The notes beneath the pieces were generated by a model. The model was not told where the DNA came from and ran no database searches. It saw only the letters and a program-made list of their open reading frames with translations. The translations under genes and the position numbers were made by a program. Positions 38,957 through 57,005 of a stretch of 64,000 nt of DNA are shown piece by piece; position 1 is the first letter of the stretch; each line of letters starts with the position of its first letter. The stretch is from Candidatus Acetothermia bacterium (GTDB taxonomy: Bacteria > Bipolaricaulota > Bipolaricaulia > UBA7950), in the NCBI GenBank assembly GCA_022684035.1, contig JAJHSB010000062.1:6054-70053 (forward strand), written 5' to 3'.

Positions 38957-39200
38957 TCCCCGGACAAGCCGGAAATCCCAATAACCAAATCTCAATTTCC
39001 AAACAATAATCAAATTTCAATAATCAAACTTCTATTGCGATTTGTCGATAATCGAGGAGAAGACTCCGGCCTTTCTGTTTGAGATTTTGGTCATTGGTCA
39101 TTGAGCTTTGTTTGGAAATTGGTGCTTGGAATTTGTGATTTCAACTCCTTGCCATTCCCCGCCTTCGCGAGGACAAGTTTGCGTCAGATTTCAGATTTTG
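38957..39200. repeat. family-1 MITE-like element, about 245 bp, complete, inside the hyd operon
   Basis: Left arm ccggacaagccggaaatcccaataaccaaatctcaatttccaaacaataatcaaa. Right arm tttgagattttggtcattggtcattgagctttgtttggaaattggtgcttggaatttgtgatttcaa. About 90% identical, as reverse complement, to 55611-55865. Confidence 0.85.
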
Positions 39201-40276: not shown

Positions 40277-40396
40277 CTAACCCGAACAAGCCGGAAATCC
40301 CAATGACCAAATCTCAAATTCCAAACAATAATCAAATTCCAATAACCAATCCCTGCCTTCGGCTCGTGGCTCGTGGCTCGTGGCTCGTGGCTCGAA
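40277..40396. repeat. family-1 MITE half-element plus (GGCTCGT)x5 heptamer array
   Basis: cccgaacaagccggaaatcccaatgaccaaatctcaaattccaaacaataatcaaattccaataaccaa followed by ggctcgtggctcgtggctcgtggctcgtggctcg. Confidence 0.8.
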
Positions 40397-53606: not shown

Positions 53607-53896
53607 TTATTTATTAAAAGATAATGATACATTCTATATAAAATCTATCTTCCATGTTTTCTGCTTCTTTTTAATTCTTACTGTGTCGCCACTAAAATGA
53701 AGTATCCACTTGACTTTTGCAAAGAGATATATATAATTAATTTAATGTCTATGTTGTTGTGGGCAACTTGGCGAGACAGTTGTACAACTCTTCTTTGCCT
53801 GCTGCTCGGCAACTGAAAAGAAAATCGACAATAGCAAGAGGTGGTCGGTCGAGTAAGTTGATTATAGATTAATCATAGTTAAAATAGACGTTAAAA

Positions 53897-54340
53897 GCCA
53901 GATAAACCTAACGGAGGTAAATGCGATGACCGGAAAAAAGGACATCAAAAAGCCAGATAAGCCTAATGTCGGCAAGAGCGATGCCCAGAAAAAAGGGCCA
54001 GCAAAAAGATAGATAAACCTAATGGAGGTAAATGCGATGACCGGAAAAAAGGACATCAAAAAGCCAGATAAGCCTAACGGCGGCAAGAGCGATGCCCAGA
54101 AAAAAGGGCCACAAAAAGCTAGATAAGTATAGCTAACGTAGGAGCGATGCCCAGAAAAAAGGGCAAAAACAAAAGAACAGATAACAATAGCGGAGGTAAG
54201 AGCGATGGCCGAAAAAAAGGGCAGCAAAAAGCCAGATAAGTCTAGCCAACGTAAGAGCGATGCCCAGAAAAAAGGGCAAAAACAAAAGAACAGATAACAA
54301 TAGCGGAGGTAAGAGCGATGGCCGAAAAAAAGGGCAAAAA
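53897..54340. repeat. tandem array (about 8 units of 50-60 bp) duplicating the RBS, start codon and first codons of the downstream beta-CA gene
   Basis: Units follow the form gccagataaRcctaaYgg(a/c)gg(t/c)aa(a/g)Ngcgatg(a/c/g)ccNgaaaaaaggNc...aaaaa. Each unit carries GGAGGTAA-N-GCGATG and short Lys-rich ORFs (for example MTGKKDIKKPDKPNVGKSDAQKKGPAKR*). The last unit is the real gene start at 54318. Confidence 0.85.
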
Positions 54341-55373
54341 CAACAAAAAGCCTGATAAGACTATCGGTATACTTCTGGTTGTAGTCGTTGGTTTAGCGCT
54401 ATATTCTGCTCTATTTATGTCATTTACTCTGCCGGGAATTGGCGGTCGATTAGCAGAGCTCCGCGATGATGTAGGAGCGATTGTCGCCAATGTCGCTGGC
54501 TTAGTAGCACCGATAAGAGCAGAAGTAACAGGTGTACGCGCAGAAGTAACTGGTGTACGCGCAGAAATGGCAGCTGTGGGAGATGCTGTAGCAGTAACCC
54601 GCACTCAAATAATAGCCCAAATAGAAGCTTTGGAAGAAGCGCTAACCCCAGAATACTATCTCCGTCCCGCTGATCTAACGCAAAATCCGGAGGCAGCATG
54701 GCAGGAACTGACGGTAGGTAACGCACGGTTCATTGCCGGTGCAACAGTAGTACGGGATTGGGCCGCATTGCGAAAAAAGCATGCAGTTGGACAATGGCCG
54801 TTTGTTTCCATTGTCTCTTGCTCCGACTCCAGATTCTCTCCGGAAGTAATCTTCGATCAGGGGATCGGCGATGTATTTAGCGTCCGTACCGCGGGCAATA
54901 TAGTTGATGAGATAGCATTAGGCTCGCTCGAATTTTCAGTCAATGTGCTTGGAGCTCCATTGATAGTTGTGCTCGGGCACGAGGGTTGTGGTGCGGTATT
55001 TTCTACTGTCGATGCTCTGAAAGAAGTACTTAAGCTTCCGCCTGGGTTTGAGCCCGACAAGTTGATGTATGTTGTCGGTGAGATCATCCCTGCAGCGGAA
55101 GAAGCAATCGCAACAGGAAAAACCGGGATTGAACTCAGAGAATATGCGACGACAGTGAACGTCCGTATAGTCGCAGCAGAAATCATCATCGACGCATTTG
55201 GGATTGCCGACGCTATCCGAAGGGGAGATGTTATCGTCATTGGCGCTAAGGTCATGTTCGATGGCACCGTCACCGAACTATTTCGGGTAGATGAAGCTAA
55301 TATCGACGAGTTTATCGCCGCAATGGTTTATCTCAGAGATATTGCCGGACAACCATGTGAATGTTGCAGCTAA
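54318..55373 (+). CDS. membrane-anchored beta-class carbonic anhydrase with Lys-rich N-terminus, a TM helix and RAEVTGV heptad repeats
   Basis: Beta-CA motifs CSDSR and HEGCGAV in the C-terminal 200 aa. The N-terminus is MAEKKGKNNKKPDK followed by a hydrophobic helix and RAEVTGVRAEVTGVRAEMAAV. Confidence 0.8.
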   Translation: MAEKKGKNNKKPDKTIGILLVVVVGLALYSALFMSFTLPGIGGRLAELRDDVGAIVANVAGLVAPIRAEVTGVRAEVTGVRAEMAAVGDAVAVTRTQIIAQIEALEEALTPEYYLRPADLTQNPEAAWQELTVGNARFIAGATVVRDWAALRKKHAVGQWPFVSIVSCSDSRFSPEVIFDQGIGDVFSVRTAGNIVDEIALGSLEFSVNVLGAPLIVVLGHEGCGAVFSTVDALKEVLKLPPGFEPDKLMYVVGEIIPAAEEAIATGKTGIELREYATTVNVRIVAAEIIIDAFGIADAIRRGDVIVIGAKVMFDGTVTELFRVDEANIDEFIAAMVYLRDIAGQPCECCS

Positions 55374-55610
55374 TATCAATGCGTTTACCAAAGTAGGGCA
55401 GTCCGAAGAGACCGTCCGGTAGCTGTACAAGTAGAAGTAGGGGCGATCTGCACACCGCCCCTACTTTTTATTAGATAGAGCTTGTCTAAAAACTCCAATG
55501 ACGATTTCCTATGGAAGCAGCAGTTTTTAGACAGCCTCAATAGATAGAGGTGTTTGACACCATAAGAATTTCAAAGTGCAGAATAAAGTAGATAGACTAG
55601 ACTATTAGGG

Positions 55611-55920
55611 TCTAAAATCTAAAGTCTTGCGCAAACTTGTCCTCGCGAAGGCGGGGAATGGAAAGAAGTTAAACTCACAAATTCCAAGCACCAATTTCCA
55701 AACAAATCTCAATGACCAATGACCAAAATCTCAAACAGAAAGGCCGGAGTCTTTTCCTCGATTGTCGACAAATCGCTCATAGAAGTTTGGTTATTAGGAT
55801 TTGGTTATTGTTTGGAAATTGAGATTTGGTCATTGGGATTTCCGGCTTGTCCGGGTTAGGGGCAAAACAAACTCTGTAGGATTAAGCAACGGGATTGCTT
55901 CGCAGACTCACAATGACAAA
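55611..55920. repeat. family-1 MITE-like element (complete) plus 'gcaatgac' tail, 5' of the tRNA cluster
   Basis: ggtctaaaatctaaagtcttgcgcaaa ... aatgaccaatgaccaaaatctcaaacag [core] tttggttattaggatttggttattgtttggaaattgagatttggtcattgggatttccggcttgtccgggttagg, then gggattgcttcgcagactcacaatgac. Confidence 0.85.
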
Positions 55921-55988
55921 GGGGAGAGAGGGCTATTTTGTATTCTCCTTGACCGATAGAACAGAACTTGGTAATATTCATTAGAGTT

Positions 55989-56060
55989 GCGGGAGTAGCT
56001 CAGTGGTAGAGCACTGCCTTGCCAAGGCAGACGTCGCGGGTTCGAATCCCGTTTCCCGCT
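55989..56060 (+). tRNA. tRNA-Gly (GCC)
   Basis: GCGGGAGTAGCTCAGTGGTAGAGCACTGCCTTGCCAAGGCAG...TTCGAATCCCGTTTCCCGCT, with anticodon loop ttGCCaa. Confidence 0.85.
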
Positions 56061-56099
56061 TAGCCTCGTTAATCGATATTACGTTAGCGTACTACGATC

Positions 56100-56185
56100 G
56101 CCGGGGTGGCGGAATTGGCAGACGCAAGGGACTTAAAATCCTTTGAGGGTATCCCCTCGTGCGGGTTCAAGTCCCGCTCCCGGCA
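56100..56185 (+). tRNA. tRNA-Leu (TAA)
   Basis: 86 nt with a long variable arm; anticodon loop ctTAAaa. Confidence 0.8.
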
Positions 56186-56204
56186 AAGAGAAAGATAAAG
56201 ATAT

Positions 56205-56278
56205 CGCGGGGTGGAGCAACCTGGAAGCTCGTCGGGCTCATAACCCGGAGGTTGTCGGTTCGAATCCGACCCCCGCAA
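56205..56278 (+). tRNA. tRNA-fMet initiator (CAT), copy 1
   Basis: C1:A72 mismatch and three G-C pairs in the anticodon stem (gggCTCATAAccc). Confidence 0.8.
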
Positions 56279-56302
56279 CTAGTTGCAATATTTAGTATTT
56301 AC

Positions 56303-56376
56303 CGCGGGGTGGAGCAACCTGGAAGCTCGTCGGGCTCATAACCCGGAGGTTGTCGGTTCGAATCCGACTCCCGCAA
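56303..56376 (+). tRNA. tRNA-fMet initiator (CAT), copy 2
   Basis: Near-identical to copy 1, differing by 1 nt in the acceptor 3' strand. Confidence 0.8.
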
Positions 56377-56388
56377 CTATGTCAAGTC

Positions 56389-56463
56389 GGCGACGTAGCT
56401 CAACCGGCTTAGAGCGCTCGGCTCATATCCGAGAGGTTCAGGGTTCAAGTCCCTGCGTCGCCA
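56389..56463 (+). tRNA. tRNA with CAT anticodon (elongator Met or lysidine-modified Ile2)
   Basis: GGCGACGTAGCTCAACCGGCTAGAGCGCTCGGCTCATATCCGAG...TTCAAGTCCCTGCGTCGCCA. I cannot tell Met from Ile2 by eye. Confidence 0.7.
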
Positions 56464-56467
56464 TATC

Positions 56468-56541
56468 GGGGGTGTAGCTCTAACTGGGAGAGCGCTGCGT
56501 TCGCATCGCAGAGGATGGCGGTTCGAATCCGCTCACCTCCA
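56468..56541 (+). tRNA. tRNA-Ala (CGC)
   Basis: G3:U70 in the acceptor stem; anticodon loop ttCGCat. Confidence 0.75.
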
Positions 56542-56605
56542 TTCTCTGTCATTGCGAGAGTTCGCAGAACTCGTGGCAATCTCAAAGAGATAATTCTCGT
56601 TTAGA

Positions 56606-57005
56606 TGCTAAAATCTGAAGTCTTGCGCAAAATGGAAAGGAATTGAAATCACAAATTCCAAGCACCAATAACTAACTACCAGAAAGAGTGACTCGTGACT
56701 CGTGACTGGTAACTGGAGGGGAAGATCCCACGAGCCACGAGTCACGAACCACGAGTCACGAACCACGAGCCACGAGCCGAAGGCAGGGATTGGTTATTGG
56801 GATTTGGTTATTGTTTGGAAATTGAGATTTGGTCATTGGGATTTCCGGCTTGTCCGGGTTAGGGGCAAAACAAACTCTGTAGGATTATAAGGAATGAGAT
56901 TGCTTCGCTGACTCGCAATGACAAAGGAAGGTAATTTGCAATGACCTGCGAAGAGACTCGCAATGACCTGTCTGCGTGCGGGAGACGTACAGGCAGGCGG
57001 AATAG
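56606..57005. repeat. family-1 MITE-like element with internal heptamer arrays plus 'gcaatgac' tail, 3' of the tRNA cluster
   Basis: The core contains gactcgtgactcgtgactggtaactgg and the inverse array cacgagccacgagtcacgaaccacgagtcacgaaccacgagccacgagcc. Arms as in the other family-1 copies. The tail gagattgcttcgctgactcgcaatgacaaaggaaggtaatttgcaatgacc is about 95% identical, as reverse complement, to 46541-46592. Confidence 0.85.

Follow-up and report, generated by a model that had tools for sequence, protein, structure and literature searches.

A minisatellite of tandem copies of a translation-initiation region in the predicted 5′ leader of a β-carbonic anhydrase gene from a Candidatus Acetothermia bacterium

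In bacteria, head-to-tail repeats of 40–100 bp that lie between genes on one transcript and differ in copy number from strain to strain are described as MIRUs or, more generally, as intergenic variable-number tandem repeats (VNTRs). MIRU insertions were reported to be tolerated via coupled small open reading frames (ORFs), and this coupling to be insensitive to spacing between −4 and +25 nt (PMC12548453). Bacterial upstream ORFs (uORFs) that possess a ribosome-binding site (RBS) of their own commonly modulate downstream genes (PMC13285730). Here we describe an array whose units are diverged copies of the start region of the gene next to it, which encodes a β-class carbonic anhydrase (CA). It is located on a stretch of 64,000 nt (contig JAJHSB010000062.1 of assembly GCA_022684035.1; hereafter the window) from an uncultured Candidatus Acetothermia bacterium of the Bipolaricaulota (NCBI protein MCI2425494.1). 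No direct precedent for a tandemly duplicated bacterial start region was found in the literature.

Tandem Repeats Finder delimited the array to 53893–54337, with a period of 55 bp and 8.0 copies (score 428) or, equally scored, with a period of 113 bp and 4.0 copies (score 431–458). An invariant GCGATG, present at 53923, 53978, 54034, 54089, 54144, 54202, 54257, and 54315, served as anchor to define the unit starts (Table 1), the distances from anchor to anchor being 55, 56, 55, 55, 58, 55, and 58 bp. The initial annotation, made from the letters alone, had placed about eight head-to-tail units of 50–60 bp directly in front of the CA gene. Tandem Repeats Finder and the anchors agree on the array and on the number of units, which do fall within that size range; the true repeat, however, is a super-unit of two. 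The array comprises four such double units of 110–113 bp each. In two of them (A type, 111 and 110 bp), a unit with a Shine–Dalgarno (SD) motif precedes one lacking it; in the other two (B type, both 113 bp), the SD-less unit comes first, and an 82-bp exact tract is common to both. Within a type, equivalent units are 91% (u1 and u3), 95% (u2 and u4), 93% (u5 and u7), and 93% (u6 and u8) identical, whereas identity between the types is only about 70–80%.

The last unit, u8, is the actual initiation region of the CA gene, its ATG being fixed by alignment to orthologs that begin with MAEKKG. The units are, as had been claimed, diverged copies of this region, and what was duplicated comprises ∼22 nt of GGAGG-containing leader, the ATG, and the initial 12–13 Lys-rich codons. 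How specific the sequence is to this place is illustrated by the 31-mer GGAGGTAAGAGCGATGGCCGAAAAAAAGGGC, which occurs in the window only at 54192 and 54305 (0 occurrences expected by chance). Because the units are contiguous, with every base inside a repeat unit and no spacers, the array is not a CRISPR array; neither is it simple low complexity. No second comparable array was found anywhere in the window. In a background survey of ∼0.9 Mb of fetched prokaryotic loci, other arrays with a period of at least 30 bp reached no more than 4.1 copies, and their periods were mostly multiples of 3, which suggests that they are coding repeats. The array is unusual, yet it is within the known class of bacterial intergenic minisatellites, consisting of head-to-tail units in the range of ∼40–100 bp in a non-coding stretch between genes.

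According to the initial annotation, every unit retains a GGAGG as RBS. This motif was found in only four of the eight units (u1, u3, u6, and u8), with a spacer to the ATG that is always 8 nt; at the same position, u2 has GTCGGCAAG, u4 GGCGGCAAG, u5 AACGTAGGA, and u7 AACGTAAGA. All eight ATGs do open a short Lys-rich ORF (11–31 codons), but a TAG or TAA at its end is not universal, as the ORF at 54260–54355 terminates in TGA when read from the sequence. Ahead of the gene's own start, GGAGG, 8-nt spacer, and ATG are combined at three sites, from which the predicted uORF1, uORF2, and uORF3 begin (Table 1). Thus, what had been proposed as a stack of upstream small ORFs amounts, by sequence, to three SD-led mini-cistrons and not to eight. 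From stop to next ATG, the spacing is +24 nt between uORF1 and uORF2, +78 nt between uORF2 and uORF3, and +20 nt between uORF3 and the CA gene; the TAA of uORF3 is located 7 nt before the GGAGG of the CA gene (8 nt start to start). This is the layout of coupling uORFs, with an SD and a start upstream and a stop near the main start, although the predicted uORF3 ends 20 nt before the CA ATG and not at −4, a distance inside the range reported for coupling. The uniform uORF length of ∼30 codons results from the period of 55 bp being 3n+1: in any one ORF, the first AGATAAG falls into frame as GAT-AAG, the second as AGA-TAA. Lys accounts for about one third of the uORF codons. A Pfam scan of the uORF peptides yielded no match. 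In the JGI assembly of a near-identical strain (L163; see below), uORF3 was called as a gene, and an exact look-up returned only the contig of that strain; for the 34-aa ORF at 54022–54126, an exact look-up found no record.

Table 1. Position of the array, its parts, and the associated features in the window.
Feature	Position	Strand	Description
Whole array	53891–54340	+	8 head-to-tail units, 55–58 bp each; between the gene for a PKD-domain surface protein (large; ends 53476) and the CA gene
A-type part	53891–54111	+	u1 53891–53945, u2 53946–54001, u3 54002–54056, u4 54057–54111
B-type part	54112–54340	+	u5 54112–54169, u6 54170–54224, u7 54225–54282, u8 54283–54340
uORF1 (predicted)	53926–54012	+	28 codons, MTGKKDIKKPDKPNVGKSDAQKKGPAKR; GGAGG 53913–53917, 8-nt spacer; TAG stop
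uORF2 (predicted)	54037–54126	+	29 codons, MTGKKDIKKPDKPNGGKSDAQKKGPQKAR; GGAGG 54024–54028; TAA stop
uORF3 (predicted)	54205–54297	+	30 codons, MAEKKGSKKPDKSSQRKSDAQKKGQKQKNR; GGAGG 54192–54196; TAA stop
β-class CA gene	54318–55373	+	351 aa; Pfam PF00484 Pro_CA, E = 6e-27
σ70-type promoter candidate	53710–53737	+	TTGACT-16 nt-TATAAT, 11/12 consensus match
Two antisense ORFs	53862–54227 and 54242–54604	−	Phe/Leu-rich complements of the A-rich repeat; not genes

The array is also present in L163, a near-identical strain represented by a 53-kb contig from JGI sample 3300045482; its CA is identical to that of the window at 350 of 351 residues, and its left flank shows 1 mismatch in 2316 bp. In these metagenome assemblies, the number of units differs, 8 in the window versus 12 in L163, the latter composed of four A-type double units plus the same two B-type double units. 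In a global alignment, the window array equals that of L163 minus blocks of 121 and 135 bp, with 0 mismatches over the other 501 bp. The 121-bp deletion lies within a 67-bp exact tract and the 135-bp deletion within a 30-bp exact tract, as would be expected for unequal recombination or slippage between in-register units. Some A-type double units of L163 carry small nested insertions, for example, GATGCTGATAGAT. Nested micro-duplications, GATAGATGCTGATAGAT and GATAGATGCTGCTAAGATAGATGCTGATAGAT, are found at double-unit junctions of L163 (2430–2450 and 2655–2700 of that locus), showing that slippage has also acted inside the array on a second, smaller scale. A Logan contig of 1.3 kb (L001) begins inside u4 and has one 113-bp B-type double unit fewer. 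The CA ORF and its N-terminus are unchanged in every allele, whether of 12 units, of 8 units, or shorter as in L001. The notion of a recombination-prone cassette is supported by three copy numbers in three assemblies of one species (L001 not being counted as independent evidence), but no change of tail length accompanies it.

In the sister species, whose CA is 78% identical, eleven loci from many samples (L002 and L165–L174), which share a syntenic downstream glycosyltransferase, all have a single start region and no tandem repeat, and the same was observed for a 67% CA ortholog (L003). By these comparisons, the array is specific to one species-level lineage. A scan of species-representative genomes with the CA alignment returned 80 loci with a best partial identity of 63–78%, the window's own species not being represented among these genomes; a protein-based scan of a metagenome collection returned only distant CAs (≤53% identity over most of the domain). 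An exact search of the metagenome collection for an array-specific 23-mer gave 0 matches, a weak negative given that the collection evidently lacks the JGI sample of L163. Within the 64 kb, the unit is confined to a single locus and is not dispersed as are MIRUs proper.

The sequence settles how the array originated: the initiation region of the gene was repeatedly duplicated in tandem, in at least three rounds. One unit became two, of which one copy lost the SD and gained ATGCCCAG; this double unit was duplicated in turn, the products diverging into A type (u1–u4) and B type (u5–u8); and each type was then amplified, recently. All SD-less units (u2, u4, u5, and u7), whether of A or B type, have the derived ATGCCCAGAAAAAAGGGC in common, which indicates that the SD was lost in their common ancestor. 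From the order of units with and without SD (+, −, +, −, −, +, −, +), it follows that, at the u4/u5 junction, either one unit has dropped out or a recombinant has arisen. As L163 has two more double units between essentially identical flanks, change appears to be still ongoing. Single-copy orthologs already contain A-rich direct repeats around the start (AAAAAAAAGGCAG and AAAAAAAAGACAG, 17 nt apart), and a leader motif of the CAGACAAGC... kind in these orthologs resembles CAGATAAG of codons 12–14. Such repeats could plausibly have provided the microhomology for the first slippage event.

The candidate promoter upstream of the array closely matches the σ70 consensus (Table 1); its position implies a 5′ leader of ∼570 nt with the whole array inside. 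The promoter block CCACTTGAYWTTTGCAAAGAGAT is identical in L163 and, by eye, is kept at the same position in the sister species, where L165 has TTGATA...TTAAAT; an automated scan of the L165 locus found no + strand promoter there. A TTGACT-17-TACAAT site is also present upstream in L003, and, judged from these putative sites, long leaders seem to be the rule for this CA gene. The CA leader of L165 (∼320 nt), which is devoid of the array, contains a different SD-led ORF of 45 codons with a TTG start (1742–1879 of that locus), and translated leaders may be a general feature of the gene.

No + strand terminator-like hairpin was found between the promoter and the CA gene (53737–54318), and the minimum-free-energy fold of the leader consists only of local hairpins of 3–5 bp that close each A-run. 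The folding z-scores are low (−3.6 and −5.5) and mostly reflect the repetition of one small hairpin. An Rfam scan of the whole window detected tRNAs only and no leader RNA family. With no + strand terminator and only small local hairpins, the attenuation leader suggested by the initial annotation could not be upheld, and the same applies to slipped-strand phase variation, as the candidate promoter precedes the array and a change in copy number does not touch the CA frame. In the predicted fold, the GGAGG of the CA gene (54305–54309) seems, by eye, to be paired with CUUCU of codons 19–20; sequestration of the SD by this pairing was considered and rejected, the complement not being conserved (CUGCU in L002).

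The CA itself consists of a Lys-rich N-terminal tail, one hydrophobic helix, a repetitive stalk, the Pro_CA domain (residues 165–312), and a C-terminal CECCS. No ortholog in the alignment deviates from the zinc-site motifs C168-S-D170-S-R172 and H221-E-G-C224, and the orthologs share the MAEKKG start, the Lys-rich tail, and the hydrophobic helix. This CA subfamily was reported from metagenome-assembled genomes (MAGs) of the Lost City serpentinite system, assigned to Methanosarcinaceae, NPL-UPA2, and Bipolaricaulota, as well as from a MAG of the Hakuba Happo hot spring, and was interpreted as an adaptation to CO2-poor, high-pH fluids (PMC9469722). Two sister-species loci (L165 and L007) carry what, from the naming, appear to be MAG names of the Lost City data set. 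The ecology of the enzyme is a reason to care about its expression and is no evidence of array-based regulation.

Two further observations concern the CA protein. Its stalk, between membrane helix and catalytic domain, contains an in-frame tandem repeat of 21 bp (54519–54566; 2.3 copies, AEVTGVR AEVTGVR), which L163 shares but the 78% ortholog lacks; it constitutes a second lineage-specific tandem duplication in the CA gene. The Cys-rich C-terminus (55356–55370 of the window) is conserved in the subfamily as CxCC and then S, G, or R, as in CECCS, CGCCS, or CDCCR (orthologs P0002, P0004, P0005, P0009, P0013, and P0016); it might have a role in metal binding or as a signal by which the exported enzyme is anchored.

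Taken together, we consider it fairly probable that the array is a lineage-specific, recombination-prone minisatellite that is tolerated in a translated 5′ leader and is near-neutral. It would be transcribed from the conserved promoter as part of the long leader, and, with one GGAGG–8 nt–ATG per double unit, the leader would be translated as a chain of mini-cistrons of 28–30 codons, three in the window and five in L163. In two of three cases, the predicted stop precedes the following ATG by 20–24 nt, and the position of the last stop, 20 nt from the CA ATG, would fit termination–reinitiation coupling. Each double unit would supply an SD, an ATG, and a stop, by which ribosomes would stay on the lengthened leader and be delivered beside the true RBS; expansion would be tolerated because a start and a stop come with each insertion. 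CA translation is most likely influenced by the array at most quantitatively and in dependence on copy number, without a switch. As frame, promoter, and N-terminus are unchanged, on/off variation and variation of tail length are excluded.

Several points weigh against a tolerated, near-neutral minisatellite. Promoter, array transcription, and uORF translation are predictions from the DNA sequence; half of the units are devoid of an SD, and the recent copies differ at too few sites to reveal selection on the uORFs. The oldest unit types have diverged by ∼25–30%, which means that the array has persisted and could hint at selective maintenance rather than neutrality. Furthermore, the assemblies, all of them from metagenomes, could each understate the exact number of copies, and L001, shorter by one 113-bp double unit, is fully compatible with a collapse at k = 31.

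These last points lead to the question of whether the array, or its copy-number differences, could have resulted from short-read mis-assembly, which is very improbable. It is true that all sources are metagenome assemblies, that L001 breaks inside the array and has no k-mer up to k = 83 that the window lacks, and that the 121-bp difference between the window and L163 sits in a 67-bp exact tract. However, units that are 70–95% identical and carry type-specific substitutions cannot be created by collapse or expansion, the extra copies of L163 contain unique insertions, and, over the 501 bp they have in common, two long contigs (81 and 53 kb) of different assemblies are identical at every base. 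Reproduced by two independent assemblies, the sequence is not sequencing noise. In addition, at k ≥ 33, the window junction at 54080 must stem from real reads: as no more than 30 bp make up the second tract, the window array has, at such k, k-mers that are absent from the L163 allele, and a de Bruijn collapse of that allele can therefore not yield the window array. The allelic difference between the window and L163 is thus probably real, whereas L001 could be a k = 31 collapse and was left out of account as independent evidence. It is still harder to maintain that the array is, or was, coding, that is, that it represents a Lys-rich N-terminal extension of CA beginning at 53926 and either decoded by frameshifting on A-runs or broken by errors. 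For such an extension speak the common frame of uORF1 and uORF2, parted only by a TAG stop and a short spacer, the A6–A7 run in every unit, an in-frame A_AAA_AAG in u6 and u8 (read from the sequence), and the fact that a −1 shift at G_AAA_AAA in u7 would fuse uORF3 to an open stretch of 21 codons before the CA ATG. Yet, stops repeatedly break all three frames throughout the array, and unit lengths of 55, 56, and 58 bp are not multiples of 3, from which it follows that the array is not an N-terminal coding repeat. Besides, the A-run lengths are identical in three assemblies, the orthologs begin with MAEKKG and have no extension, and no stimulatory hairpin follows the A-runs. The unit lengths, the stops in all frames, and the identical CA N-terminus in every allele equally dispose of the idea that the array varies the length of the N-terminal tail. 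As a separate observation, the slippery heptamer A_AAA_AAG is also in frame at 54326–54332 (CA codons 3–5) and recurs in uORF3, and an ortholog has A_AAA_AAA at the CA site. In contrast to programmed −1 frameshifting of the dnaX type, the sequence following 54326–54332 is unstructured and the shifted frame stops after 12 codons; the heptamer is probably merely Lys codons.

No more credible than a coding array is leader-peptide attenuation, in which the uORFs would sense charged tRNA-Lys, or a decoy function, in which GGA or GGAGG motifs would titrate a CsrA-like protein or 30S subunits. The share of Lys codons in the uORFs would suit the former; the latter could draw on three GGA motifs per A-type SD-containing unit, one of them in the loop of a small hairpin. 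But the leader has neither a terminator/antiterminator pair nor a + strand terminator, the only Rfam matches in the window are tRNAs, CA is unconnected to lysine supply, the arrangement is absent in orthologs, and its composition follows from copying a Lys-rich N-terminus together with an SD. More serious, if unlikely, is an adaptive expression rheostat of the contingency type, in which recombination would alter the number of SD-led mini-cistrons and thereby tune the membrane-anchored CA, with selection keeping the start sites. It would account for copy numbers that differ between near-identical strains with flanks ∼99.9% identical, and it would suit a CA subfamily thought important for inorganic-carbon supply at high pH (PMC9469722). 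The A-type SD-containing units have retained GGAGG, 8-nt spacer, ATG, and open frame despite ∼27% divergence from the true start, which is weak evidence for a rheostat given the few independent lineages and the decay of half of the units. On the other hand, the arrangement is absent from every ortholog examined, the SD has been lost in half of the units, the substitutions are too few to show purifying selection, and the whole is known from two or three alleles only, read as sequence. In its boldest form, which we regard as slightly more doubtful, the array would be a selected minisatellite translational rheostat by which the number of uORFs, and not frame or promoter, quickly shifts the exported CA with the inorganic-carbon supply in an uncultured acetogen.

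The surroundings of the array contain further features. The two antisense ORFs on its minus strand (Table 1) had been dismissed as artifacts of the repeat, and correctly so: neither has a Pfam match, an exact look-up of the 121-aa antisense ORF found no record, and a homology search across 5.8 billion proteins returned nothing but the corresponding antisense call of L163. The CA gene is followed, a short way downstream, by a tight cluster of six tRNA genes (55989–56541) for Gly-GCC, Leu-TAA, Met-CAT (three genes), and Ala-CGC; two of the Met-CAT genes are tandem copies that are 98% identical. The cluster is flanked by two direct copies, ∼1 kb apart, of a dispersed repeat of ∼300 bp with the core TTGGAAATTGAGATTTGGTCATTGGGATTT, of which the 64 kb contain at least 5 copies (55605–55922, 56601–56927, and near 38973, 40295, and 41330) and which may be a mobile or recombination-related element. 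Heptamer microsatellites, CCACGAG x7 and GGCTCGT x5, occur beside copies of this repeat (56688–56778 and 40361–40394), and those at 56688–56766 form an imperfect inverted repeat of 32 nt.

If copy number sets CA output, the locus would provide a natural, gene-dosage-like tuning that operates purely in the 5′ leader via duplication of a start site, and for an enzyme to which an important part in carbon supply is ascribed where habitats are CO2-poor and of high pH. The tolerated, near-neutral by-product that we favor would still illustrate how a start region already in place can instantly give rise to new SD-led small ORFs, and why such expansions can be tolerated. As a practical warning, gene callers put spurious antisense ORFs on arrays of this kind, and short-read assemblies may mis-count their units.

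Compared with the systems described so far, the array is closest to MIRUs and other intergenic VNTRs, with which it shares unit size, head-to-tail order, placement between genes on one (here predicted) transcript, and a copy number that varies by strain. The small ORFs of MIRU units hand translation on to the downstream gene, which is thought to render the insertion harmless (PMC12548453), as is predicted here for the uORFs. However, MIRUs are one dispersed family at many loci, mobile insertions at start codons with a stop/start overlap of −4 nt, whereas the unit of the array was seen at a single locus, was copied from the start of the adjacent gene, and places its stops 20–24 nt (once 78) before the next ATG. 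Coupled bacterial uORFs, the natural counterpart of the "bicistronic design," likewise have an SD-led leader ORF that ends a few nucleotides before the main RBS; those known are single and conserved, whereas here three to five stand in series, derived from duplication of the main start and not conserved in orthologs. As in contingency loci with simple sequence repeats, a repeat tract beside a gene start changes its unit number far faster than its flanks, but the units of such loci measure 1–9 bp, and the 55–58-bp units of the array lie outside the ORF and outside the −35/−10 spacing. As gain or loss of a unit leaves promoter and frame intact, no on/off switch is to be expected. With attenuators of the trp/his type, the array has in common short ORFs rich in one amino acid upstream of a gene, yet not the terminator/antiterminator structures, the metabolic link between amino acid and gene, or the conservation. 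The array is therefore best described as a VNTR- or MIRU-like minisatellite, but one that was generated locally from the start of the adjacent gene and thereby yielded a stack of SD-led uORFs.

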